This document shows, one piece after another, positions 46,907 to 64,000 of a stretch of DNA of 64,000 bases. How positions within the stretch are numbered: the stretch's first letter is position 1; each line of letters opens with the position of its first letter. The notes under the pieces are model-generated. The model was given only the letters and a program-made list of their open reading frames with translations. It did no database searches and was not told the origin of the DNA. Location: NCBI GenBank assembly GCA_022616535.1, contig JAKEEM010000016.1:1683-65682 (forward strand), in the 5' to 3' direction. Source of the stretch: Chlorobiota bacterium. GTDB taxonomy: Bacteria > Bacteroidota > Ignavibacteria > Tepidaquicellales > OLB5. Made by a program: the position numbers and the translations under genes.

Positions 46907-49183
46907 CTATTCAATTTGCAGTTCCTGGCTGATTCGGCTCATTCTGAGCAGTGAAAGCAGCCAGCTTATGGTTGATTCGGCTCCCTGGTTCTGATTAATC
47001 ATCGTCGATGTAAGCCCGTCATAACATCCGCCTGTTTCGTAATTGTAAAGAATCTCCTGCCGTTCGTTATTTCCCAAAAACCAACTGAAAGCAAGACCGA
47101 GCCTTTTCACCCATTCATAGTCGCGAGTAATATAATATGCCTGATAAAATGCGTCAATCAGCGGCGGGATTTCAATCGGCTGCTGGTCATATTTGGCTTT
47201 CTGCTTTCCTTTTTCATACCAGCCGTTATTGCCAACAATCGAAAGACAGTTTTTTTCCCTGTCATAAAGCTCGTTATAAAGCCAGCTTAGGGATTCAAGT
47301 CCCGCCTTCAAGTAAGCATCATTGCCAAACAACCTTCCCGCCATCAGCAGCGCCTGGGGAAGCCTTCCGTTAATATAGGTCAGCTTGTTTTCAAACCAAA
47401 GCCAATCTTTATCTTTTGATTTATCGTAATGCTCAAAGAGATTTTCAGCAAACGTTCTGCAGATTTTTTTTATATCCCTCGCACCGGAAAATCTTTCCAG
47501 ATACAGTATGCATCCCATTATAATGTAAGCTATTGCTCTCAATGATTTAAACTGTGTCATGTTTTTAATGCTCTTATCGAACAGAGATTTTGTCAAACCT
47601 AGTATCGATGATGAGGAAGCATTTTTAACCATATAACCGAGAACGAAAATCACTCTTCCGTTGCAGTCCTCAGAGCCGGTTTCCTCAAGCCACCTTCTGT
47701 CGTAGGACATGAAATTTCTGAACAGCCCCTTCTGCTCATTAAAAGAGTAATGAACAAACATAAGGTACTTGTTTATGTAATCTTTAATCCCACTCTCACT
47801 GTAAATCTGCTCATAAATCATAGATATAAGCAGCGCCCTCACATTATCATCAGTGCAGTACCCTTCGTTAGGATTGGGGATTGAAAAAGTTGCGTGCTGC
47901 AAAATCCCAGTGCTATCTGTTAAATTTTTGACATGATTTAAATTAACCTCGGGCAAATAAGGCAGTAATTTAAATTTTGAATGCTGAACTGGAAGAATTT
48001 TTCCGCTTTTAAATTCTTCAGCGGCTTTATGGAATACAGAGGCATAGGACTTCCCCACGTTTTTCCAAATCATTTCACGCCCCGCATCATAAGCATTTTT
48101 ACGCAGTTTATTCCTGATGTTTTCATCGATTAATAAATCAACAAACACGTCTTTTAAATAATCGGGATTTTTAAACGGAACGAGCATGCCTTTGCCGTCA
48201 TTTAAGATTTCTTCGGCATACCAGTATGGGGTTGAAACAACAGCTTTACCGCAGGCAAGAGCATAGGTCAAAGTTCCGGAAACAACCTGCTCTTTATGGT
48301 TATATGGACTAACGTAAATATCGCTCATCAGCAAAAATTCAAGAAGCTCCTTATCATCAACAAACCTGTTTATAAACATCACATGGTTTTCAAGCCCTAG
48401 CTTTTTAACAAGATTTTCCAGCGAATCCCTGTAAGATTCCCCGAACTTACGCTTAATATTGGGATGAGTGGCTCCTAAGACAATATATATTACATCGATA
48501 TACTTTTCAATAACACCAGGAAGAGAATTTATAACGTCTTCTACCCCCTTGCCCGGGCTTAATAATCCAAACGTTAAAATTACGCGCTTATCGGAAATTT
48601 TAAATTTATCCTTATAGTAAACAGTGTCAAGGAAGGGAACGTCGGGCGCGCCGTGCGGAATGAAATTGATTTTTTCCTCACCGATATCGTATACATCCTT
48701 AAGCATTTTAATCGATTTTCTGGAAAGTACTACAAGAAAAGAGGACCTCTCTCCTATTTCTTTAAGTATTTTAAGCTCGTCATCCGACGGATTTTCAACT
48801 ATTGTATGCAGGGTAGTTACAATGGGCTTATTCAGCTTTTCGAGCAAATATAAAATATTAGAGCCGTAGTCGCCCCCGTATAGACCGAACTCATGCTGAA
48901 TGCTTACAACATCGGAATCGGACAAGTTCAGAAAATAAGCAGCTTCTTTATAATCGTTAATGCTTTGAGCTTTGATTTCAAACTTAACTTCCGACGAATA
49001 TCGGTATCCTTCGGGAATGTCATTCAAAGCCGTTATATCAACAGAATAAATGTTCCCGGGAAGCTGCTTAATAATTGAGTTTGCTAAATCGCTTGTAAAT
49101 TTTGCAATTCCGCAATGTCTAGGAACATAGGACGAAATGAAAGAAATTCCAAATGGTTTGCTATGCTCATTAGCATTTATCAT
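46907..49183 (-). CDS. GT4 glycosyltransferase fused to a six-hairpin glycosidase-like domain
   Basis: PRHCGIA, QHEFG, FGLLSPGKG and SGTLTYA (GT4); GILQHA, GYCTDDN, YDQQPIE and NQGAES (C-terminal domain). Confidence 0.85.
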   Translation of the reverse strand: MINANEHSKPFGISFISSYVPRHCGIAKFTSDLANSIIKQLPGNIYSVDITALNDIPEGYRYSSEVKFEIKAQSINDYKEAAYFLNLSDSDVVSIQHEFGLYGGDYGSNILYLLEKLNKPIVTTLHTIVENPSDDELKILKEIGERSSFLVVLSRKSIKMLKDVYDIGEEKINFIPHGAPDVPFLDTVYYKDKFKISDKRVILTFGLLSPGKGVEDVINSLPGVIEKYIDVIYIVLGATHPNIKRKFGESYRDSLENLVKKLGLENHVMFINRFVDDKELLEFLLMSDIYVSPYNHKEQVVSGTLTYALACGKAVVSTPYWYAEEILNDGKGMLVPFKNPDYLKDVFVDLLIDENIRNKLRKNAYDAGREMIWKNVGKSYASVFHKAAEEFKSGKILPVQHSKFKLLPYLPEVNLNHVKNLTDSTGILQHATFSIPNPNEGYCTDDNVRALLISMIYEQIYSESGIKDYINKYLMFVHYSFNEQKGLFRNFMSYDRRWLEETGSEDCNGRVIFVLGYMVKNASSSSILGLTKSLFDKSIKNMTQFKSLRAIAYIIMGCILYLERFSGARDIKKICRTFAENLFEHYDKSKDKDWLWFENKLTYINGRLPQALLMAGRLFGNDAYLKAGLESLSWLYNELYDREKNCLSIVGNNGWYEKGKQKAKYDQQPIEIPPLIDAFYQAYYITRDYEWVKRLGLAFSWFLGNNERQEILYNYETGGCYDGLTSTMINQNQGAESTISWLLSLLRMSRISQELQIE

Positions 49184-50129
49184 GATTTAGATAATCTAAA
49201 ATTTGTTTAACAGAAGCAGTCGCAATTGCCATTGAAGTATCGGAAGCGCCGTAATACATAATCAGCTCGTCGCCTTTAACAACAACACCGCAGGGGAATG
49301 TTACATCGGGAACATCGCCAACCCTTTCATAAATTTCATTCGGCCCGAATACCCATTCAGCAGACCTTTTTATTACTTTTCTCGGGTCTTCTAAATCGAG
49401 CAAGGCTAAACCAAGCCTGTATAATGACCCCGCCGCTGTAGTCTTTACGCCATGATAAATAATCAGCCAGCCTTCGGAGGTTTCAATGGGCTGCGGACCT
49501 AATCCTATCTTATATGCGTCCCACCAGCTTCCCCTTCTTGCCGGCAAAAGTATAGAATAGTCGCCCCAATGTTTTAAATCGGGCGAAAAAGACATCCAAA
49601 TATGCGCTCCGAGCAAATAGCTCGTAGGCGAAGGACGGTGTATTAATGCCCACCTGCCCTTAAATTTCCTCGGGAACAGCGATGCATCCTTATCATCGGG
49701 AGGCATAATAACACCGTACCTGCGAAAAGTTATAAAGTCCTCCGTTGTTGCAAGAGAAACCAACGGTCCGCTTTCTGAAAATGAAGTATATACAACCGCA
49801 TAAGTATTTTCACTCTCAAGCTTAACAATCCTGGGGTCTTCTATCCCGAACTTTTCTTCCGGAAAGTCCGTTTTAGGAATCAGAGTAGGTTCAGAGTCAA
49901 TTTTCCAGTTTGTATAACCGTCTTGGCTTACAGCTTTGCACAAATGAGAAATCCCTCTCATATCCTCTACTCTGACTAGCAGCAGTACTTTGCCTCCAAA
50001 AACAGTTGCACCGGCATTGAAAACTGAGTTCACTCTGTAAGGCCACATTGCCGGGGTAAGGACAGGGTTATGCTTGAACCTTTTAAACAAAACACTTTCC
50101 TGGTGATGTTGAATATCTTTATCCCTCAT
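49170..50129 (-). CDS. GH130-family glycosidase/mannoside phosphorylase
   Basis: VFNAGA, GIEDPR, DKDASLFP, HRP, YHGV, VPDVTFPCG and YYGASD motifs. Confidence 0.88.
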   Translation of the reverse strand: MRDKDIQHHQESVLFKRFKHNPVLTPAMWPYRVNSVFNAGATVFGGKVLLLVRVEDMRGISHLCKAVSQDGYTNWKIDSEPTLIPKTDFPEEKFGIEDPRIVKLESENTYAVVYTSFSESGPLVSLATTEDFITFRRYGVIMPPDDKDASLFPRKFKGRWALIHRPSPTSYLLGAHIWMSFSPDLKHWGDYSILLPARRGSWWDAYKIGLGPQPIETSEGWLIIYHGVKTTAAGSLYRLGLALLDLEDPRKVIKRSAEWVFGPNEIYERVGDVPDVTFPCGVVVKGDELIMYYGASDTSMAIATASVKQILDYLNHDKC

Positions 50130-50191: not shown

Positions 50192-51539
50192 TCAAATGCC
50201 CAGATTCTTTATTTTTCTATAAAAGGTTCTTTGGTTCATATTCAGTATCCTTGCAGCTTTTGATTTATTGCCGCCAGCCTGTTCAAGAGCTTTTAAAATT
50301 ATGTCTCTTTCGGCCTGCTTGGTTGAATATTCAAATGTCATATCTCCTGCATCTCCGTCACCCGAAATAAAAGAAGGAGTTTCTTCCGGCAGGTTTATCG
50401 AGTCAAGCGTATCACCCGTGCTCAGCAGCACGGCTCTTCTTATAACGTTCCTCAGCTCTCTAATATTGCCGGGCCAGCTGTAATTAATAAGCTTCTCCGC
50501 CATTTTTTTGGAAATGTTCACTACATTCTTATTAAGCTCTTCATTAGCTTCCTTGACAAAATGTTCAGCAAAGAGCTTTATATCATCTTTCCTTTCCCTT
50601 AATGGGGGTAAATCAATGTGAAATTCATTTAACCTGTAATACAAATCATCTCTGAAGCGCTCCTTTTTTACAATATCACTGAGTCTTGTATTAGATGCCG
50701 CAATAATTCTTACATCAAGCTTGACGGGATTTTTGCCGCCCAAACGTGATATTTTTCTTTCCTGAATTGCTCTAAGTAATTTTATCTGGTTTGACTCGGA
50801 TAGATTTGTAATTTCGTCAAGAAATAATGTTCCTTCATTCGCCTGCTCAAACTTGCCGATTTTTTGTGTTTTCGCATCTGTAAAAGCACCTTTTTCATGC
50901 CCGAATAATTCGCTTTCGATTAACGATTCCGGTATTGCTCCGCAATCCACGGCAATAAACGGTTTTTTGTTTCTGTCGCTCAGCCTGTGAATAAAATTAG
51001 CAATCACTTCCTTTCCTGTTCCGCTTTCTCCTTGAATTAAAACTGTTAGTGCGGTCGGAGTAACTATTTTTACCTGTTCAAAAACCTCTTTAATTTTTTT
51101 GCTGTTTCCCACAATCATTTTATCGCTTTTATACGCTTCGTCAGTTTTTTTCCTTAAAAGATTTACTTCCTTGTTGAGATAATCCATCTCAAGGGTTTTC
51201 CTGATTGTAAAAATCATTTCTTCGTTATTAAACGGCTTGGTCAGGTAATCCTGCGCTCCCTGCTTTATAGCATCAACTGCATTTTTGATGTCACCGAAAG
51301 CTGTGAGCATAAGGACGGGCAAATCAGGTTTTATTTTTTTAATTTCCTTAAGTACCTGAATCCCGTCGGCTCCGGGAAGCTTTATATCACAAATAACAAG
51401 ATTGTAGGGATTTGACTTAATTTCTTTGATTCCCTTGTCACCGTCTTCTACAGCTAAGGCTTCGTATCCCGCTTCCTCGAGCACGTTTGTTAATATACCT
51501 TAGAGATTCGTTATCGTCTATTATTAGTATTTTTTCCAC
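50192..51539 (-). pseudogene. NtrC-family sigma54-dependent response regulator with an apparent 2-nt deletion near codon 16
   Basis: GTG 51539 gives MEKILIIDDNESLRY, then the frame shifts to the ORF containing VLEEAGY, GESGTGKE, GAFTDA and Fis-type HTH. Span is 1348 nt (449 codons + 1). Confidence 0.82.
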
Positions 51540-54500
51540 TGTGATTTATCGGTAATTTTATTTCTACTGTAGTCCCTGTTCCCTCAGTGCTTCTAATATT
51601 CAGTATTCCCTGATGGGCTTTAACGGTCTGATAAGCCAGCCCCAAGCCGAGCCCTGTTCCGTTGGTTTTGGTAGTAAAAAAAGGCTCAAATATCTTATCT
51701 AAATTTTCCTGTGATATCCCCACACCCGTGTCCGAAATACTCATTACCAGCTCATTGCTGCCTTTGCTCTGCTTAACATCGATATTTAATTTCCCGCCTC
51801 TGGGCATTGCATCAATTGAATTTGATACAAAATTCATTAATGCATTTTCCAGTTTAATTTTATCTATAAAAAGCCAGGGGAGATTTTTCTGAACTGCTTT
51901 GCTTATTTCTATTTTATTTTCGGCGCACCTTGGCTTAACGCTACCGATTATGTTATCCAAAATCTCGTTAAGATTTTCCTCCTTAAATACAAGGTCTTCC
52001 GGCGAGGCAAAATTCAGTAAATCCCTTATTATTTTATCGGCAATATCGGTATTTACTAGTATATATTTCAAATGCTTCTGTGATTTTTCATCCAATTTTG
52101 CTTTTGCGAGCAGCTGCGCAAGCGCACTAATGTTAGCAAGCGGATTCCTGATTTCATGCGCAATTCCGGACGAAAATCTGCCTAAAGCAGCAAGTTTTTC
52201 ATTATTTATAGCATCCTTCTGTGCCTCTATCAAGCGGGCGTTGGTTTTGCGAAGCTCCTCTTCAACAAGTTTAATATCGGTAATGTCCTGAACGCTTCCG
52301 TATAGTTTCAGGGGTTTATTATTTGAATCGAATTCAATGAGTAATTCAACATTAAGATACTTTAAGCGTCCGTTTTTAGTTACTATCCTGTAATCAATTA
52401 CTGCCGGCTCTGGTTTCTTTTCAAACTGGGCAATTAATTTTTCGACTTTCCCGGTATCCACGGGATGAATCAACGAAAAAAGAATTTTATAATCCTGTTC
52501 AATCTCGCCGGGTCTGAAACCGTGGATTCTGTATAATTCATCAGACCAAACCTGCTTGCCCGTAATTAAGTCAGCTTCCCAGCTGCCGAGCTTGGCAATT
52601 TTCTGCGATTGCTCAAGCATTTTCTGTTTTTCAATTAACTCACATTCAATTTGTTTTCTCACAGAAATATCTCTTAACATGCCTGTGAAAAAGACCTCGT
52701 TATTCAGATGCCATTTAGAGAGCGAGAGCTCAATCGGAAATTCCGTCCCGTCTTTTCTTCTTCCCGCGAGCTCGATAGTCCGCCCTATCAGGTTTGAATT
52801 CCCCGTGCTGACCGTCTTTTCAAATGCTCTCAAGTGTCTTTCCTTAAGGGCTTCGGGCATCAGAGCGGTTAATTTTTGGCTGAGAAGCTCTGAGGCATTA
52901 TAACCGAAAATATTTTCAACGCTTTTGTTTATGTAAATTATATTTCCCTCTTTGTTCGATGTGATTATAGCTTCATTGGCAGTATCGGCAACCGCCTTGA
53001 AATGCTTTTCACCTTCTCTTATTTTATCGAGTATTTCGCTTCTTTCAACAATGCTTCCCAACTCGACGCCGATATTGCTGATACACTCCAGAATTTCACT
53101 GTCAAGCGGCTCATCATCGGCTTTAAAAAATTCCAAAACACCTATGGCTTCGGTCTGCTTCATAACCGGTATCCATATTCCTGTTTTTAGACCGGTTTTC
53201 CCGGTAAACTTCAATCTTTTGTATGACTCCCCTTCAAGCTCGGAGAGCTTAACCCAATATGCCTTCTGCTCCTCAAAAGCCGTTCCGGGCAAGCCCTCTC
53301 CCTTAACAAAAACAGCGCTTTCGAAAAGCTCTTTCAATGAGATGTATTCTTCGCCGAGATTGTAGTTCCAAAGACCTGATGAAACTAAAGTCCCGTCCTC
53401 GCTTTTTAAATAGCAATGTCCAACATCCCACTTCGTATACTGGCAAACCTTATTAATAGCATACGAAATCGAATTTTTCAAATCAAATGACTTATTTGTA
53501 ATTAATATGACGTCATTTAAAAGCTTTAAAAGACTGTTTTGCTTCTTAATGAGGGTTTCATTTGTTTTTAAATCGGTAATATCCTGGCATATGCCGACTA
53601 TTGCCTCTGCCCTGCCTTCATCATTACGTATAACCGAGGTAGAAAGATAAACAATAAATTCGGAATCATCCTTTCTGCGGTTCTTAAGCTCGCCTTTCCA
53701 GCCGCCTCTCAAGGTCCTAACGAGTAATTCGTCCTTTGTTTTGTCGTCAATGGTATTTGAAAATACCACAGGAATTCTTTTATTGAGCAGCTCTTCTTCG
53801 TAATATCCATAAACGGATTCAAAAGCAGAATTAATGAAAATCGTCCTGCTTTCAAGATCAGTTATATAAACACATTCCTTTATTCCCTTAATGGCATGCG
53901 CAAACAGCTTTAGCTTGCCCTGAATTTTTTCTTTATTTTCAATTTCAGTTAAGAGTCTGGTTAAAGTATTAGCCAGCTCAATTGTCCGGTCTTTGACTCT
54001 GTCTTCAAGCTCGCTGTATGATTTTTTTAATTCATTTTCTGCTTTTTTCCTCTCCAAATAATTTCCTATTTGCCTGCCGACAGCTTCCAGCACTTCAAGC
54101 AAATCTTCCATCGGGCTTAAGCGGTTTCGGCTAAAACACTCCAGCACAGATATTATATCTCTACCGTTGCTGATTGGAACTGCAAACGCAGAAATCCATC
54201 CCATTTTAAGGGCATCATTTTTCCTGATAAAGTTATGGTCAATCCTTATATCCTGTATCCACATAGATTTTGAATTTTTCCAAACAATTCCAGGCAGCCC
54301 GGAACCTTTTTTCAGCGAAAATTCACTATCATACATAGCCGTGTATTCCCTTGTGTTGCGTTTTCCGGCCGCCCATGTTGATGCGGGCTTCAGTCTGCCG
54401 TTTTCAACAACCCATAAAATTCCGAAATCCCAGTTTAAGCCGGTGCAGATATCCTCCAAGACACCGCTTAAAGTTTCGTCAAAAGATTTCGCTTCTTCCA

Positions 54501-55713
54501 GAGTCTTTGCAACCGTGTGCTGAATCTTTAAATATTTTTCGTTCGTTTTCCTTAAATGAATATCTATACATGAGCCGATATAACCGGCAAATTCATCCCC
54601 TTCATATCTTGGGATAGCTTTATCCAATACCCAGCGGAATTCACCCTTTGTATTTCTAAGGCGGAATTCCATTTCAAACGGTTCCATTCGTTCAAAAGCC
54701 AGTATATAGGTTTCCAGGCAGTTTTTCAAATCCTCGGGGTGAATCCCCTCAGCCCAACCGTTTCCAAGTTCCTGCTGAAGTGTTCTGCCGGTAAAATCGA
54801 GCCAGCTTTTATTAAAATAATTACAATGCTTATTCCTGCTTGACATCCATATCATCACAGGTGAGGAATCCGCCATTACGCGGAATCTTTCCTCGCTTTC
54901 GCGCAATGAGTTTTCGGTTTTTATCCTTGCCTCAATTTCCTGAACAAGCTGGGCATTTGCTGATTTTAACTCGGCTGTTCTTTCTTCCACCTTGTCTTCA
55001 AGCTCTTCATAGGATTTCTGAAGAAGCCGCTCGGCGGTATTTTTATTTTTAATTAACCTGTTTGAGATAAAAAGCGAAAGGCCTATAATTACAAATGCAA
55101 ACAAGCTTGTGGATATGATAAATATCTGGATGTTCAGCGAGCTTTCATTTGCTTTAGCCTGCCTGCTATTTAAAAGCTCAATTTCTTCATTTTTAACCGA
55201 AAGAGAAATATCGTAAATTTGCTCAAGGGTGTGCTGCGAGGCAGTTGCCAATTTTGTCTGTTCTTCGGTCACCTTATCCTCGAGCTTAAAAAGAGTTATT
55301 GATGAATCAAGAAGCAAAATATGTAATGAAGCCAGAGAATCAATCTGCAAAACCAATCTCTCCTGATTCGAATTACTTTTTACTATCTCCCTCACCTCGG
55401 TTATTTCATTTTGAAGCATAAGTCTGTTCTCGTTGTAAGAGTCCAGATACTTTTGGTCCCTCATCAGGATATAGCCTCTTCTAAACAGCAGCATCTGGGA
55501 AAGGTAAATATTAAGCTGGTCGGTTTTCTTTATTACTTCCTGAGCGTGATCTACCCATTCAATACTATCTTTATAACTGCTTATATTTTTGTATGTAACA
55601 ATGCTGAGAATTATAAAACATACCAAAAAAATCAAAAATGCCGCGGGAATAAATTTTTCTAAGGGGAGCTGATTAGCTAAGTTGCTGAATTCCGGTTTAA
55701 TTTTTCTTTTCAT
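51511..55713 (-). CDS. sensor histidine kinase: TM-CHASE3-TM, multiple PAS and GAF domains, HisKA, HATPase
   Basis: WVDHAQEV (CHASE3); PAS and GAF repeats; AHEIRNPL, DTGVGI and GTGLGL motifs. Confidence 0.92.
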   Translation of the reverse strand: MKRKIKPEFSNLANQLPLEKFIPAAFLIFLVCFIILSIVTYKNISSYKDSIEWVDHAQEVIKKTDQLNIYLSQMLLFRRGYILMRDQKYLDSYNENRLMLQNEITEVREIVKSNSNQERLVLQIDSLASLHILLLDSSITLFKLEDKVTEEQTKLATASQHTLEQIYDISLSVKNEEIELLNSRQAKANESSLNIQIFIISTSLFAFVIIGLSLFISNRLIKNKNTAERLLQKSYEELEDKVEERTAELKSANAQLVQEIEARIKTENSLRESEERFRVMADSSPVMIWMSSRNKHCNYFNKSWLDFTGRTLQQELGNGWAEGIHPEDLKNCLETYILAFERMEPFEMEFRLRNTKGEFRWVLDKAIPRYEGDEFAGYIGSCIDIHLRKTNEKYLKIQHTVAKTLEEAKSFDETLSGVLEDICTGLNWDFGILWVVENGRLKPASTWAAGKRNTREYTAMYDSEFSLKKGSGLPGIVWKNSKSMWIQDIRIDHNFIRKNDALKMGWISAFAVPISNGRDIISVLECFSRNRLSPMEDLLEVLEAVGRQIGNYLERKKAENELKKSYSELEDRVKDRTIELANTLTRLLTEIENKEKIQGKLKLFAHAIKGIKECVYITDLESRTIFINSAFESVYGYYEEELLNKRIPVVFSNTIDDKTKDELLVRTLRGGWKGELKNRRKDDSEFIVYLSTSVIRNDEGRAEAIVGICQDITDLKTNETLIKKQNSLLKLLNDVILITNKSFDLKNSISYAINKVCQYTKWDVGHCYLKSEDGTLVSSGLWNYNLGEEYISLKELFESAVFVKGEGLPGTAFEEQKAYWVKLSELEGESYKRLKFTGKTGLKTGIWIPVMKQTEAIGVLEFFKADDEPLDSEILECISNIGVELGSIVERSEILDKIREGEKHFKAVADTANEAIITSNKEGNIIYINKSVENIFGYNASELLSQKLTALMPEALKERHLRAFEKTVSTGNSNLIGRTIELAGRRKDGTEFPIELSLSKWHLNNEVFFTGMLRDISVRKQIECELIEKQKMLEQSQKIAKLGSWEADLITGKQVWSDELYRIHGFRPGEIEQDYKILFSLIHPVDTGKVEKLIAQFEKKPEPAVIDYRIVTKNGRLKYLNVELLIEFDSNNKPLKLYGSVQDITDIKLVEEELRKTNARLIEAQKDAINNEKLAALGRFSSGIAHEIRNPLANISALAQLLAKAKLDEKSQKHLKYILVNTDIADKIIRDLLNFASPEDLVFKEENLNEILDNIIGSVKPRCAENKIEISKAVQKNLPWLFIDKIKLENALMNFVSNSIDAMPRGGKLNIDVKQSKGSNELVMSISDTGVGISQENLDKIFEPFFTTKTNGTGLGLGLAYQTVKAHQGILNIRSTEGTGTTVEIKLPINHSGKNTNNRR

Positions 55714-55732
55714 TTAATCCTCGCTACTTACA

Positions 55733-55756
55733 ATATATGACAATTTTGTCATATAT
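55733..55756. promoter_or_regulatory. perfect palindrome, candidate activator-binding site (UAS)
   Basis: ATATATGACAA-TT-TTGTCATATAT has perfect 11-bp arms. Confidence 0.65.
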
Positions 55757-55801
55757 AATAATTCCTCTCTAAAATAAACACTTAAAACCTCAAAAAAGAT
55801 T

Positions 55802-55816
55802 TGGCACAAGATTTGT
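55802..55816 (+). promoter_or_regulatory. sigma54-type -24/-12 promoter (variant TTGT)
   Basis: TGGCAC-AAGAT-TTGT, with GG-N10-GT spacing. Confidence 0.65.
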
Positions 55817-55890
55817 TATCTAACAATTATCTATGTTCTATTAAAATACTAAAAATTTATTTGTTATAAAATTATCAAGGAGGAGAAATA

Positions 55891-56046
55891 ATGTTTAACA
55901 TCATAATTTCACACCAAGAACTGGGTTATTTAAGATTATTATTGGATTTAGCCGCCCTTGATGATGATAACAAAAGTAACAACAAGGACTTAAAAACAGA
56001 CACAAAAATTAATGAAAAGCCCCTAATAATTAATAAAACTTACTGA
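55891..56046 (+). CDS. small protein (51 aa)
   Basis: MFNIIISHQELGYLRLLLDLAALDDD...; AAGGAGG RBS; first ORF after the sigma54-like promoter. Confidence 0.55.
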   Translation: MFNIIISHQELGYLRLLLDLAALDDDNKSNNKDLKTDTKINEKPLIINKTY

Positions 56047-56094
56047 TTTAAACATTAAATAACAATATTTTTAAATTTATAAAAACTAAAAAAA

Positions 56095-56610
56095 TTGAAT
56101 GCCGGTGAAACCAAAAATACAGTAAAAAGCACAAACAAAAGGCATAAGCACCTTAATATTATGATAGTTGAGGATGACAAATATATGAATGAGGCACTTT
56201 GCTACGTTTTGGAGTCAGAAGGATATAATGTTGATTCCTCAACCGATGCTCCAAATGCGGTGGATATGTTAAAAAACACCGGTAAAAACTATGATTTATT
56301 GATTGTGGACTACAATTTACAGCATTTTGGCGGAATGACGGGGCTTGATGTATACGAAATAGCCAAAAACGTCAATCCTGCCAGCAAGGGTGTTATGATA
56401 TCTGCTTACGGAAGAAACAAAAATTTAAGAGAAAAAGCACTGGAAAAAGGAATAGCCGTGTTTTTGGATAAACCGTTTCTAATAAGTGAGCTGATTGATT
56501 CAGTTGAAGGACTGAGAGGTGAGAATGAGGTAAAGAATAGAAGCAAGGGAAAATTAAAAGAAAATCTTAAGGATAACTCCGACTCGAGGACACAATTTAA
56601 TCACATTTAA
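56095..56610 (+). CDS. single-domain response regulator (receiver)
   Basis: IMIVEDD, LLIVD (phospho-Asp), ISAY and FLDKPF motifs. Confidence 0.88.
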   Translation: MNAGETKNTVKSTNKRHKHLNIMIVEDDKYMNEALCYVLESEGYNVDSSTDAPNAVDMLKNTGKNYDLLIVDYNLQHFGGMTGLDVYEIAKNVNPASKGVMISAYGRNKNLREKALEKGIAVFLDKPFLISELIDSVEGLRGENEVKNRSKGKLKENLKDNSDSRTQFNHI

Positions 56611-56646
56611 AATTAATCACATTAAAAATTATATCGCAATAGAGTT

Positions 56647-56820
56647 ATGGATGAAATGAATGTTGAAATGAATGTTGAAATGAATGTTGAAATGAATAAG
56701 CAGCGGGAAACCAATGAAATATATTCGGAATTTGATGAAACCGATGAAAATGAAAAATTATACAAATGGTTAGCCATAGGAACCGGAATTATTTGGATTT
56801 TATCAATAGTTCTTTTCTGA
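56647..56820 (+). CDS. small acidic protein with C-terminal TM anchor (57 aa)
   Basis: MDEMNVEMNVEMNVEMNKQRETNEIYSEFDETDENEKLYKWLAIGTGIIWILSIVLF*. Confidence 0.6.
   Translation: MDEMNVEMNVEMNVEMNKQRETNEIYSEFDETDENEKLYKWLAIGTGIIWILSIVLF
56653..56697 (+). repeat. 12-bp tandem repeat GAAATGAATGTT x3.75 (EMNV)
   Basis: Exact copies at 56653, 56665 and 56677, partial copy at 56689. Confidence 0.92.
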
Positions 56821-56842
56821 AATTTTGAACTCAAATATCGTT

Positions 56843-56998
56843 ATGAAACTATGGGCAATTTTTACAGTGCTTATTGTACTGTGGATTTTAAGTGTTGTAG
56901 CACTGGCTGATACACTCGGAGGGTATATTGTAATCTTACTTATACTTGTAATGGTTTATATTTTAGTCAGGGTAATCAAGTCAAATAGGCCAATTTAA
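56843..56998 (+). CDS. lmo0937-family (DUF5670-like) small membrane protein
   Basis: MKLWAIFTVLIVLWILSVVALADTLGGYIVILLILVMVYILVRVIKSNRPI* fits the LW...LW...GG.I..LL...R pattern. Confidence 0.75.
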   Translation: MKLWAIFTVLIVLWILSVVALADTLGGYIVILLILVMVYILVRVIKSNRPI

Positions 56999-57007
56999 AT
57001 TAAAACT

Positions 57008-57496
57008 ATGAAAGAAGATATTTTTAAAAAGGAAGCGTTTGTTCACTACAAATATTTTATAAATCTGGCTCAAAAGATGACGCAGAACCCGCTTGATGCG
57101 GAAGATTTGGTTCAGGACACATACATCAGAGCCTACAAGTTTTTTGATACATTTGAGCCGGGCTCCAACTGCAAGGCATGGATATTTAAAATCATGAAAA
57201 ATTTGTTTATCAACTACAGCATAAAGAAAAAATCCCGCCCTTTAATCAGCCTTGAAAGCACAAACATCCAGACAGGAGTCTGGTATGATGACCCCCGCGT
57301 TACGCGGTATGAATTATTAAAATTAATGGAGAAAATTAAGGATGAATACCGGGCTGTAATAATATTGTACCATCTCGAAGATTATTCCCTTTTGGAAATT
57401 TCAAAAGCTTTAAACTGGCCGCTTGGAACGGTTAAAAGCCGCCTACACAGGGCAAGAAGAGAGTTTAAAAAAATCCTGCTGAAATCTCAAATTTAA
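57008..57496 (+). CDS. ECF sigma factor
   Basis: DAEDLVQDTYIRAY, KAWIFKI and EIS...GTVKSRLHRAR motifs. Confidence 0.92.
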   Translation: MKEDIFKKEAFVHYKYFINLAQKMTQNPLDAEDLVQDTYIRAYKFFDTFEPGSNCKAWIFKIMKNLFINYSIKKKSRPLISLESTNIQTGVWYDDPRVTRYELLKLMEKIKDEYRAVIILYHLEDYSLLEISKALNWPLGTVKSRLHRARREFKKILLKSQI

Positions 57497-57525
57497 CATT
57501 TTACCTGAAAGGAGGCTGTTTTTCA

Positions 57526-57843
57526 ATGAATACACTGAATAATCAGCTGTTCATAGAAGGAGAAAACAATCAGCTGTTCGTTTATGTTTATCTTCAGGAA
57601 TTAACAAAACGGTCAGCCTCTAAAATACTTGACCATTATGTTGAGTCATTTAAAAACCTGGATTTTGAAAAAATTTATGTTTCCTTCTGGAGCAGAGGTA
57701 TTTCGGGCGAGCATTTAAGCAAATTCCTCAAAACAAGCGACAAGGTTATCGCCAGAATGCTGAAGGGAATCAGGCACATAGAAACCTGCTTCGATTTTAA
57801 AAAAAATTTGAAGGTAATTAACAGGACAAGGAAAATTAATTAA
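57526..57843 (+). CDS. hypothetical protein
   Basis: 105 aa with AGGAGG RBS; no TM or zinc anti-sigma motif seen. Confidence 0.6.
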   Translation: MNTLNNQLFIEGENNQLFVYVYLQELTKRSASKILDHYVESFKNLDFEKIYVSFWSRGISGEHLSKFLKTSDKVIARMLKGIRHIETCFDFKKNLKVINRTRKIN

Positions 57844-57910
57844 TTATTGTCATTTATGTCATATAGTTTTTTTTATTTTAGTGAATTAACGAAGTTTTCA
57901 AAATCAATTC

Positions 57911-57925
57911 TGGCACAGTAATTGT
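57911..57925 (+). promoter_or_regulatory. second sigma54-type -24/-12 promoter (variant TTGT)
   Basis: TGGCAC-AGTAA-TTGT, with GG-N10-GT spacing; TGTCATTTATGTCATATA at 57848-57865 upstream. Confidence 0.65.
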
Positions 57926-61543: not shown

Positions 61544-61580
61544 AAAATAAAGCCTGAGCTTGAAATTCAGGCTTTATTTT
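61544..61580. terminator. bidirectional rho-independent terminator
   Basis: AAAATAAAGCCTGA-N9-TCAGGCTTTATTTT (14-bp stem) between convergent genes. Confidence 0.85.
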
Positions 61581-61716
61581 GATTGGGTGAAGTTTTAAAT
61601 GTTTTGTAGTTGAATCCCTCAAAACGCACCCGCCCATCTCCATCAGCAGCAATCCGCAGAAAACCCTCCTTGTCCTGTAATATACAGCTAACCGATAATG
61701 CAGGCAAGCCCTTTGG
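61567..61716 (-). pseudogene. remnant of a two-component-regulator propeller (Reg_prop) repeat
   Basis: PKGLPALSVSCILQDKEGFLRIAADGDGRVRFEGFNYKTFKTSPNQNKA*, preceded in frame by TAG. Resembles GL..NSV.CI.QD..GFLWIGT.DGL.RFDG. Confidence 0.65.
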
Positions 61717-61748: not shown

Positions 61749-64000
61749 CTAAAACTCCGTTGAAACAATCCCCCTTATAAGGAACTCATCAAAATTATTC
61801 CGCATGTCAAACCAATCGTGATACAAGTTTTTCTCAGCGCGTACTTCTATGTTTATATACCGGTCATATCCTAATCTTGTGCCAAAGTAGAACGTGTTTT
61901 TTTTATTCAAATCCTTTTCATATGCAGTGCTGAAGCCAATAAAACTGTTTGCAATGTCAAATAAAGTATAATCAACGCTGATATCACCGGACAATATCCT
62001 TGAATATTCACCCGGGTACCTCGCAAAACTCATAGAGAATGAACCGGATAAATTAAGCGGAAAGCTGAACCCCAGTGACTGGCTGAATATTAGGTTATGA
62101 ACGCTTACGTTTTCGGTTATTATTGAATCCAGATTGCTGGAAGAATTCATAAAATACGAAATCGATGAAAAGAAATTTACATCCCATTTTTTGTAATTAT
62201 GCCCTGTAAATACGCTTGAGACATAAAATTTGTTGTCAAGCTTATCACTTAAAGATGAAGCATTGTTAGTCATTAATGTCGGCGCAAACATAATATTAAA
62301 GTACGGTAAACCTTTGAGTCTGAAGTTAGCCCCGATGCTGAAACGGGTTACGCTTGTTGTGTATCGTTTCCAGTCGATAAGATTATCCCGGTACCATAAT
62401 AATTCACCTGTCAAGCCGATTTGTTTTTTTGACAGCTTCTGTTCAACCTTCGATTTTATTTCGAGCTTATCAGTTGAAAGGTTCGGCACGCCAAGCGATG
62501 TATAACCCGGTCCAAGCATTCTTACACCGGCTGTTACCTTTGTGGCTGATTTTTCATTGTTAAATATCCCTTTTACAGTGTATGAATAATCAACTGAGCT
62601 TGAGATTTTAGGATGAAACGTATTTTTAACCCAATCCGGGATAGCTTTATTTTCCAAATCCGCATCTCTTGTATCACGCGTAAGCATGGCGCCCGATATT
62701 TCACCCTCAAGCGACAGCTTTTTCCTGAACAGGTCCAGCTTCCCATCAATGCCAAACACGTAGTTCGCCTTTGGCGTTAATATTTGGTTTGATGAATCAA
62801 TTGAAATAGATTTTTCATCATCCTTTGCATACATTCCCGTAAAATAAATGTGCGAACCATCCTTTTGACCGATTCCAAGCCTGCCGATGTATATGCTCCT
62901 TTTGTAAGCCTCATTATCAATCGGCTTTTGATTTTTGAAACCGCCTGCCGCTATATATAATAAGCCGGGGTTAAATTCAACATTCACGCCTGTAAGCGGC
63001 ACTCCTCTAACAGTAAGCTGCGTGTAATCCGGGTATGTTGTCCCAAAACCCAGTGTTCTGAACGACGACATGAACTTTAATAACGGATTAAGTCGCGCCA
63101 TAACCTTTCCTTTTGCATCCGACTCCAGCTTATCTTTTTGCCTTTCAGTTAATTTCGAAACTTCTTTTTTCCCTTTCTCCAGCAGCTTGTCTTTTTCCCT
63201 TTCAACACGTTCCATTATGAAATCGTTAATGACAGATACATCAAGATTCAATCCAACTTGGTTAATATTCTGCCTAGACCCCAAGTTCTCAGATGAAAGC
63301 AGTATTGGCATTGAAAAAGGCAATCCGTAGATGCTGAGAGATGGATTTATCTCCCAATAGCCATACCGGGGTTCCTTATCAGAACCAGTGCCTGAGCGAT
63401 TGGCGTTTTCACCGTAAATCTTGCTATCAAATGCGAACATAAGCGGCTTGCGCTTTGTCTGGCTTTCGGATCCTGTAGAGTTAAAACCATTATCATTAAG
63501 CCCCCAATAACGTTTCATGGTTTTCAGCTTGCTCGCATCACTCGAAATATATTCCACCTCACCTGTTTTGAACTCCCACACTTCGCTTGTTGATAACAGT
63601 ACTCCGTTCACAAATGCTTCCACCTGCCATGCATATTTACCCGTAGAAATTGACCTGGCAGCTACGGGATACTGATAAATTGTGGCTATTAGGTTATCCA
63701 CATTATAATATAGGGGGTTTGACTGCATTGCATCATATCCGGATTGCATTCCATATAATTGTACGACTTTCAGCCTGTATGTTACTCTTTGCCCTGCGCT
63801 CACCGGGTACGGAGGAAGCCATGAAAAATTAATTGGAATATATCCGGAGTTGTTAAGTGTAATTCCTTCATCCCCATCGCTGTTTTTTTTCTCTGCCCCT
63901 CCAATTAAACTTATGTCATGTTCAGGGTAAAGAAGCTCAACCTGCGTCATATTCAACACGTCGGTAGAAATACAATCGCTGCCGAGTTCCATACTGGTTG
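61749..64000 (-). CDS. large outer-membrane protein: Ig/FN3-like domain + beta-barrel (5' end outside the window)
   Basis: Frame is open to the window edge. FSWLPP...YRLKV...YAWQVEA Ig-like segment; Gly/aromatic strands; terminal STEF. Confidence 0.7.
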   Translation of the reverse strand, partial: TSMELGSDCISTDVLNMTQVELLYPEHDISLIGGAEKKNSDGDEGITLNNSGYIPINFSWLPPYPVSAGQRVTYRLKVVQLYGMQSGYDAMQSNPLYYNVDNLIATIYQYPVAARSISTGKYAWQVEAFVNGVLLSTSEVWEFKTGEVEYISSDASKLKTMKRYWGLNDNGFNSTGSESQTKRKPLMFAFDSKIYGENANRSGTGSDKEPRYGYWEINPSLSIYGLPFSMPILLSSENLGSRQNINQVGLNLDVSVINDFIMERVEREKDKLLEKGKKEVSKLTERQKDKLESDAKGKVMARLNPLLKFMSSFRTLGFGTTYPDYTQLTVRGVPLTGVNVEFNPGLLYIAAGGFKNQKPIDNEAYKRSIYIGRLGIGQKDGSHIYFTGMYAKDDEKSISIDSSNQILTPKANYVFGIDGKLDLFRKKLSLEGEISGAMLTRDTRDADLENKAIPDWVKNTFHPKISSSVDYSYTVKGIFNNEKSATKVTAGVRMLGPGYTSLGVPNLSTDKLEIKSKVEQKLSKKQIGLTGELLWYRDNLIDWKRYTTSVTRFSIGANFRLKGLPYFNIMFAPTLMTNNASSLSDKLDNKFYVSSVFTGHNYKKWDVNFFSSISYFMNSSSNLDSIITENVSVHNLIFSQSLGFSFPLNLSGSFSMSFARYPGEYSRILSGDISVDYTLFDIANSFIGFSTAYEKDLNKKNTFYFGTRLGYDRYINIEVRAEKNLYHDWFDMRNNFDEFLIRGIVSTEF

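Follow-up and report, generated by a model that had tools for sequence, protein, structure and literature searches.

Two matching promoters in a contig from an uncultured member of the Ignavibacteria raise the question of what activates them, and of why both depart from the sigma-54 consensus at the same base. The window analysed here is a 64-kb stretch of DNA (positions 1,683 to 65,682 of contig JAKEEM010000016.1, assembly GCA_022616535.1). It belongs to contig C36 of a 2.89-Mb, 77-contig genome with 38.7% GC, whose closest named relatives are Ignavibacteria metagenome-assembled genomes (MAGs). A sequence-only reading had proposed that the promoters, here called P1 and P2, form a local regulon of a nearby NtrC-type activator, with a shared binding motif, a lineage-specific base at -12, autoregulation, and a cascade from sigma-54 to an extracytoplasmic function (ECF) sigma factor. 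Related genomes point to a modified form of this proposal. We estimate a probability of roughly 85% that the neighbouring activator acts through a dyad to drive P1 and P2 as a sigma-54 regulon, and that T at -12 is normal for the Bacteroidota and the Fibrobacteres-Chlorobi-Bacteroidetes (FCB) superphylum.

Two predicted sigma-54 promoters with exact spacing

The two promoters and the inverted repeats upstream of them are the following, with predicted transcription start sites (TSSs).

55802-55816, + strand: sigma-54 promoter P1, TGGCACAAGATTTGT, predicted TSS about 55826-55828
57911-57925, + strand: sigma-54 promoter P2, TGGCACAGTAATTGT, predicted TSS about 57936
55733-55756: putative enhancer 1, 11-nt inverted arms around TT, with the core TGACAATTTTGTCA at 55738-55751, 50 nt upstream of P1
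57848-57861: putative enhancer 2, TGTCATTTATGTCA, beginning 5 nt past the stop of a gene for a 105-aa protein, 49 nt upstream of P2

TGGCAC-N5-TTGT matches the window exactly twice, at P1 and P2, where 100 shuffles lead one to expect 0.09 matches and none of them reaches two (0/100). Sites with one mismatch occur at the chance level (12 observed, 12.2 expected), so only the exact sites stand out. Both have the exact TGGCAC-N5-TTG elements and GG-N10-G spacing originally described and, again as described, read TTGT, with T in place of the consensus C at -12. This final base is their sole deviation from a sigma-54 promoter. Both lie between genes, point in the right direction with a coding sequence close downstream, and are conserved at orthologous positions. 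P1 orthologs at four loci in relatives (L034, L102, L103 and L107; L102 is in genome G018 and L107 in genome G023) share a AAAAAAGATT-TGGCAC context. Dyad and promoter pairs orthologous to that of P2 stand before the same gene for a Cys-rich protein at L004, L010 and L024, and at L107 a dyad and promoter pair precedes the p181 ortholog. A near-copy of P1, TGGCACAAGATTAG at 61871-61884 on the - strand, lies inside a 747-aa open reading frame (ORF) without an upstream dyad and was judged a chance match.

The proposal requires a sigma-54 gene, and the genome encodes one. A single-copy rpoN (C21:53546-54973) matches PF04552 at 2e-59 and scores 415 bits against the TIGR02395 equivalog, for which the cut-off is 277. 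Genome-wide, strict matches to TGGCA[CT]-N5-TTGN that are intergenic and face a gene number only about five. Those outside the window are:

C22:17227: strict sigma-54 site, TTGA, before the gene for a 275-aa exported NBR1-Ig protein
C6:4478 (L003 3941-4500), - strand: strict sigma-54 site TGGCACGGCTATTGT, TTGT, before hsp20-dnaK
C6:7704 (L003 7600-7830), - strand: strict sigma-54 site TGGCACAGAAATTGC, TTGC, 55 nt before the gene for a 540-aa SBBP beta-propeller protein with a type IX secretion system (T9SS) tail

A relaxed scan of the whole genome yields 34 intergenic candidates, few of them convincing beyond the five strict ones. An Rfam search of the window returned only a tRNA.

A dyad at a fixed distance from the promoters

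The strings upstream of the two promoters, TGACAATTTTGTCATATA at 55738-55755 and TGTCATTTATGTCATATA at 57848-57865, would be expected 0.04 times by chance. Their last TGTCA is separated from TGGCAC by 50 nt at P1 (55752-55801) and by 49 nt at P2 (57862-57910), and these directly read gaps bear out the shared upstream motif. The element at P1 had been called a perfect 24-bp palindrome, which overstates it: only its 11-nt arms (55733-55743 and 55746-55756) are perfect, and they flank a non-palindromic TT. Its distance of 19 nt from the kinase start codon (ATG 55713, - strand) was read correctly. Relatives do not share the TATA extension 3' of the dyad, beyond a preference for T at +1 (26/41 sites). 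Over 40-41 distinct promoters, the dyad consensus is T-rich-a-TGACA-WWWW-TGTCA-T.

In the genome, TG[AT]CA-N4-TGTCA occurs at eight distinct sites. Three of the eight are intergenic, stand 49-51 nt before TGGCAC-N5-TTG and are followed by a start codon 37-75 nt on; these are P1, P2 and the site on C22. The genome-wide scan that had been suggested as a check thus recovers both window promoters together with a third, whose position on another contig means that the regulon is not purely local. Within the window, P1 and P2 both behave as members of a single sigma-54 regulon.

Upstream of the C6:7704 promoter there is a degenerate dyad, TGTTATAAATGTCA, at 41 nt, one helical turn closer than usual. 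This site is possibly a fourth member of the regulon.

A kinase and an NtrC-family activator lie divergent from P1

The operon that diverges from P1 encodes a putative two-component system:

51511-55713, - strand: sensor histidine kinase of 1400 aa, with CHASE3, several PAS and GAF, HisKA and HATPase domains (Pfam)
50192-51484, - strand: main frame of an NtrC-family sigma-54 activator, a bacterial enhancer-binding protein (bEBP), with a receiver domain lacking its first strand, an AAA+ sigma-54 interaction domain and a Fis-type helix-turn-helix (HTH)
51485-51539, - strand: true N-terminus of the activator, from GTG 51539, MEKILIIDDNESLRY, overlapping the 3' end of the kinase gene

The activator matches PF00158 at 3.1e-70 (profile positions 1-167 of 168), PF00072, PF25601 and PF02954 (HTH_8). 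It reaches no NCBIfam equivalog cut-off, and its best scores are to AtoC, NtrC and ZraR. The genome encodes three strong PF00158 proteins. An NtrC-type bEBP is therefore present in the divergent operon, as had been claimed, but it is not directly next door to the dyad; it lies just downstream of the 1400-aa kinase. Kinase orthologs adjoin the activator at L034, L102 and L107.

Two further genes keep company with this locus. A GH130 phosphorylase-like gene and a gene for a 750-aa GT4 fusion protein directly follow the window activator, 62 nt past its stop, and relatives keep the pair linked to the activator locus. In genomes G012 and G009 they are co-directional downstream of a dyad and sigma-54 promoter that follow the activator. 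The coordinates of the pair are:

Window 46907-50129, - strand: GH130/GT4 pair
L104 10504-13719: GH130/GT4 pair
L105 7187-10403: GH130/GT4 pair
L034 11698-14912: GH130/GT4 pair

The dyad and the activator share a distribution

Conservation was examined with a composite of dyad and promoter. At the family level the pattern was TGWCA-N4-TGTCA-N(44-56)-TGGCAY-N5-TTG, applied to 30 genomes of the same family; at the class level the gap was widened to 38-64 nt and 301 genomes sampled across the class were scanned. The reversed pattern served as a control in both cases. The composite is found in 18 of the 30 family genomes (33 matches; reversed control, 0). Across the class it occurs in 14/301 genomes (reversed control, 0), comprising 8/15 from the family, 4/24 from a sister family and 2 from elsewhere. 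Nearly all occurrences fall in the family or its order, with very few in the remainder of the class.

The gap between dyad and promoter in the 40-41 family promoters is about 42, 47-54 or 59-62 nt, with none at 55-58; the wider class-level search contributes further gaps of 41-43 and 58-64 nt. These three classes are about one helical turn apart, as expected for an enhancer that must occupy one face of the helix. Downstream of the family promoters a start codon follows after 23-75 nt, usually with a strong Shine-Dalgarno sequence. The same kinds of genes recur behind the composite: a small leader ORF with the motif ELGYLRLLxDLA, a Cys-rich 77-aa protein, a secreted protein of 136-149 aa, a 420-aa BNR protein, a charged protein of about 200 aa and an NBR1-Ig protein.

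An activator ortholog, defined by at least 64% identity to the window activator, is present in 19/30 family genomes. Sixteen of these genomes have the pattern and three do not; of the genomes lacking the ortholog, two have the pattern and nine do not (Fisher p = 0.0012). Within the largest genus the corresponding counts are 13/1/2/5 (p = 0.0055). Wherever contigs allow the distance to be read, in 13 genomes, the pattern lies 0.06-22 kb from the activator ortholog, often immediately downstream of it or divergent from its kinase. In the MAG CRAIB_MAG89, the operon is flanked by four dyad promoters, of which a divergent pair has one dyad in common.

The dyad thus combines internal symmetry, a conserved position upstream of the -24 element and co-distribution with the activator. 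These properties, together with its helically phased spacing and its clustering near the ortholog, agree with the earlier suggestion that it is the activator's binding site. It is very likely that the neighbouring activator uses the TGWCA-N4-TGTCA dyad as its enhancer. Literature searches, with incomplete coverage, found no description of this dyad or of sigma-54 regulation in Ignavibacteria.

T at -12 is not a local variant

The GC doublet at -12 of sigma-54 promoters is treated as near-invariant, and the T found at P1 and P2 had been taken for a lineage-specific variant. Because the promoter patterns used here ended at TTG, the following base was not biased by the search. Among 40 promoters of the regulon this base is T in 21, A in 15, G in 2 and C in 2. 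Putative sigma-54 promoters located no more than 1.4 kb ahead of dnaK, found in 24/30 genomes drawn evenly from the phylum, have T in 12, A in 8 and C in 4. In eight TSS-anchored promoters of Flavobacterium psychrophilum the base is T in four, A in three and C in one (PMC9723704 Table S2), and the authors describe the motif as typical TGGCACGnnnnTTGC (PMC9723704). Since C is a minority in three independent promoter sets (2/40, 4/24 and 1/8), T at -12 is, on this sequence evidence, the norm for the phylum. The lineage-specific interpretation does not survive, and a special role of T in the family was likewise dropped on the phylum-level RpoN and dnaK data. The dnaK-upstream sites, considered with the heat-shock regulon of F. 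psychrophilum, also point to chaperones as a possibly ancestral target of sigma-54 in Bacteroidota.

A check of the RpoN residues that contact -12 had been recommended, and it proves informative. The helix MHESTISR of the Escherichia coli and Klebsiella proteins (H377, E378, S379, T380 and R383) aligns without gaps to MDVSTVSR in the window's genome. In most of the FCB phyla sampled, H377 and E378 are replaced by Asp plus Ile, Val or Leu while S379, T380 and R383 are kept. MD[IVL]STxSR is present in all 29 family RpoN sequences recovered and in every phylum-level sample recovered. RpoN from other phyla was reached by an alignment query; a query of contigs with RpoN alone returned only close Ignavibacteria. 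Among 64 named genomes, residues 377 and 378 are Asp followed by Ile, Val or Leu in Bacteroidia, Ignavibacteria, Balneolales, Calditrichota, Marinimicrobia and Fidelibacterota, and His-Glu in Eisenbacteria and a betaproteobacterium.

Among these genomes, the Fibrobacterota proteins (L229 and L256) have His-Ile, intermediate between the canonical His-Glu and the Asp-Ile found in Bacteroidota, Calditrichota and Marinimicrobia. One contig labelled Odoribacter (L246) carries His-Glu, and may be mis-binned or horizontally acquired.

Structural work reports that the GC doublet is read by H377, S379 and R383 (PMC9770992), and E378 has been implicated genetically in its recognition (PMC4496707; PMC5505868). 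With R383 retained and both H377 and E378 lost, the helix fits a -12 element whose G is invariant and whose next base is free. The substitutions at 377 and 378 may therefore be what relaxes the -12 base, a causal link that we infer from this correspondence. The broader formulation is that sigma-54 of Bacteroidota and most of the FCB group keeps the -12 G, no longer selects C, recognizes promoters of the form TGGCAY-N5-TTG[T/A], and so reads -12 unlike the textbook factor. We regard the chances for and against it as about even. Literature searches, again with incomplete coverage, found no paper on an FCB-specific -12 variant or on its causal link to RpoN.

If the link is causal, sigma-54 regulons in the FCB superphylum are systematically under-predicted, and predictors based on the consensus would miss most promoters. 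A recent cross-phylum sigma-54 predictor relies on the TGGCAC...TTGC consensus (PMC12316311). A changed -12 contact, if real, may also alter the fork-junction lock that underlies the activator dependence of sigma-54. FCB RpoN would then be a natural variant with which to study both -12 recognition and this lock.

The P1 and P2 units and a probable ECF second tier

The genes that would be controlled by the two promoters are:

55891-56046, + strand: 51-aa leader protein with the ELGYLRLLxDLA motif; homologous small ORFs directly follow the orthologous promoter at L013, L014 and L107
56095-56610, + strand: stand-alone receiver protein (PF00072), conserved after the promoter at L034, L102, L103 and L107
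56647-56998, + strand: two 57-aa membrane micro-proteins, the second of which is DUF5670; DUF5670 precedes the ECF gene at L102 and L107
57008-57496, + strand: ECF-type sigma factor (PF04542 and PF08281; TIGR02937 above cut-off)
57526-57843, + strand: 105-aa protein (p105), with 52-57% identical orthologs directly after the ECF gene at L102 and L107
57962-58195, + strand: 77-aa Cys-rich protein, first gene of the P2 unit and a recurrent regulon member, with only a weak match to PF02069
58442-61516, + strand: probable rest of the P2 unit, encoding a 181-aa exported protein, a 576-aa DUF6600 protein and a 232-aa DUF4382-like lipoprotein

Genes of the P1 unit share one orientation and are spaced 4-49 nt apart, and the intergenic DNA from 55802 to 57843 contains no terminator. 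The sole intergenic terminator-like hairpin on the + strand is at 61556-61584, after the genes of the P2 unit, whose order is the same in two other assemblies. The ECF orthologs at L102 and L107 are 60-62% identical to the window protein and hold the same operon position. Indeed, the whole layout recurs at these two loci, with the kinase and activator genes divergent from the dyad, P1, leader, receiver, DUF5670, ECF and p105 series. At L034 no ECF gene occurs within the 3.2 kb available. The sigma-54-to-ECF cascade proposed from the window is thus upheld as a gene layout. Its conservation in two relatives, the short gaps and the lack of an intergenic terminator make the cascade itself likely. 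The 105-aa protein has no family match in Pfam or NCBIfam, and is a candidate partner or anti-sigma factor of the ECF sigma factor.

Two features of the P1 unit are of separate interest. The first micro-protein gene begins with a 12-nt unit, ATGAATGTTGAA, that is repeated about three times (56652-56697) and encodes MNVE repeats; the copy number of such a repeat could vary. In two other assemblies of the organism (L265, from GCA_022615155.1, and L266, from Logan SRR16971109), the contig bearing the ECF operon breaks off at the receiver gene or shortly upstream of it. The P1 and leader region therefore seems to break assemblies.

Autoregulation had also been proposed. In every case 19-36 nt separate the dyad from the start codon of the kinase gene, and an occupied enhancer at this position could hinder transcription of the kinase operon. 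On the - strand from 55714 to 55890, a sigma-70-type scan located no promoter for this operon, and no TAnnTTTG box was seen by eye. Autoregulation is accordingly a possibility suggested by position.

Proposed mechanism and alternative explanations

On the strength of the sequence features and their statistics, together with conservation, co-occurrence and synteny, we infer binding, activation and co-transcription along the following lines. The kinase and NtrC-family activator (50192-55713, - strand) would form a two-component system. The active activator would bind the 14-bp TGWCA-N4-TGTCA dyad as a dimer, 41-43, 47-54 or 58-64 nt ahead of the promoter and on a single helical face, and from this position remodel the closed complex of the sigma-54 holoenzyme. 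P1 would drive expression of the leader, receiver, micro-proteins, ECF sigma factor and its 105-aa partner, and P2 that of the Cys-rich protein and exported proteins; a third unit on C22 would add the 275-aa exported Ig-like protein. With the ECF gene inside the P1 unit, the system appears wired as a cascade from sigma-54 to ECF. G-T or G-A at -12 would be normal wherever RpoN has Asp plus Ile, Val or Leu for H377 and E378 and retains R383, S379 and T380. A clade-restricted NtrC-family regulon with a newly defined putative enhancer and a probable ECF second tier is well supported by these comparisons.

Several observations sit less easily with this mechanism. Each promoter has a single dyad, whereas many bEBPs use two or more sites. 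The sigma-54 contact loop of the activator reads GAFTDA (in the context GHEKGAFTDA in the window protein), not GAFTGA. This form is present at 19/19 ortholog loci, and paralogs in the same genomes have GAFTGA, GAYTGA or GSFTGA. The Fisher tests treat genomes as independent and ignore their phylogenetic non-independence, and the dnaK-upstream sites are only candidates.

The correlation between pattern and activator is also imperfect, and the exceptions bear on who binds the dyad. The promoters could be genuine and the dyad could be the operator of some other regulator, either a repressor or one of the 2-9 bEBP paralogs in each genome. Three genomes with the ortholog but not the strict pattern, and two with the pattern and no detected ortholog, would be accommodated by this explanation. 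Both of the latter genomes are, however, incomplete (75% and 81%). Paralogs with 37-46% identity occur in genomes from which the pattern is absent, so they cannot be the cognate factor or account for the distribution. Moreover, in 13 genomes no more than 22 kb separates the pattern from the ortholog, whose operon it often flanks, and the dyad's fixed, helically phased distance to the -24 element suits an enhancer and not an operator. Control by another regulator is consequently improbable. Still less credence can be given to the notion that the sites are functionless matches in AT-rich intergenic DNA. The low GC content of the genome and the chance-level count of one-mismatch sites lend it some plausibility, but the exact matches and the composite greatly exceed chance expectation, the reversed control gave nothing in 301 genomes, and positions are conserved before orthologous genes. 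That explanation is effectively refuted.

A different concern is the state of the system in this strain, which is compatible with activator control in the family as a whole. Relatives' activators start MEKILIIDDNESLRYTLTNVLE, whereas the window DNA, AGGTATA--TTAACAA, is two bases short and places the first 16 codons in another frame. In comparison with five relatives, which read AGGTATACTTTAACAA where the window reads AGGTATATTAACAA, this 2-nt deletion near 51493/51494 separates the activator's N-terminus from its main frame. The longest in-frame ORF, from GTG 51484, lacks strand 1 and the acidic pair of the receiver domain, which is intact in relatives, and only a weak AAGG stands 13 nt upstream of this internal GTG. 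The activator might therefore be unmade or inactive, leaving the promoters silent, or might be freed from its receiver and constitutively on. An identical frameshifted sequence is found in a second MAG (GCA_022615155.1), and NCBI and Logan assemblies include 3-5 contigs that encode the truncated 430-aa product. An error peculiar to one assembly is thus unlikely, and the system may be inactive or deregulated here. On the other hand, these assemblies may derive from the same or related samples and could have a common consensus error. Every dyad, promoter and target ORF is intact, evidence against a loss of long standing; the lesion would have to be recent, tolerated, or one that leaves a deregulated activator. 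A broken or rewired system in this organism is unlikely on balance, yet it is a much more serious contender than either alternative above, and activator control through the dyad remains the preferred reading for the family.

Comparison with known systems

The proposed circuit most resembles NtrB/NtrC acting at glnAp2, and also AtoSC and ZraSR. Each joins a sensor kinase to an activator with receiver, AAA+ and Fis-type HTH domains, and relies on a dyad upstream of the -24 and -12 elements and on rpoN. The differences are considerable. The NtrC box is TGCACC-N3-GGTGCA (PMC8743547), whereas the dyad described here is TGWCA-N4-TGTCA. It is single, it stands only 41-64 nt from the -24 element, and its activator has the GAFTDA loop. 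In contrast to the nitrogen genes controlled by NtrC, the targets here are exported proteins and an ECF sigma factor. The preponderance of exported proteins, which make up nearly all targets, fits the view that sigma-54 controls the cell exterior (PMC3162934).

A sigma-54 promoter and bEBP that drive an ECF sigma gene are known from HrpR/HrpS and HrpL of Pseudomonas syringae (PMC5263251). That system belongs to an unrelated phylum and has unrelated targets, and the ECF gene studied here is the sixth of a longer operon, where it is paired with the 105-aa protein. HrpR and HrpS are also not known to carry a receiver domain, whereas the window activator has one. In the PspF/pspA system, the activator operon and its sigma-54 target are transcribed away from each other, the intergenic region between them contains the enhancer, which overlaps the leader or promoter of the activator operon, and the activator represses its own gene. 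The same divergent layout, with a dyad in the shared intergenic region, is the basis of the autoregulation idea; unlike for PspF, the promoter of the kinase operon was not located here and repression is suggested by position.

The same phylum offers for comparison the TSS-mapped sigma-54 regulon of F. psychrophilum (motif SM4), which involves three bEBPs and promoters with mostly G-T or G-A at -12 (PMC9723704). Its targets include chaperones, envelope-stress genes and exported proteins, some of which are induced by osmotic stress (PMC9723704). That study gives no enhancer motif or activator assignment, whereas the present comparison offers a concrete circuit for an uncultured Ignavibacteria clade, with a kinase, an activator, a 14-bp putative enhancer, a list of targets and an ECF second tier. 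This activator, its dyad and its targets are limited to one order. Like F. psychrophilum, the window's genome has a sigma-54 promoter before hsp20-dnaK. The more general pattern, if it holds, is an FCB-wide variant of the RpoN helix paired with a relaxed -12 base.

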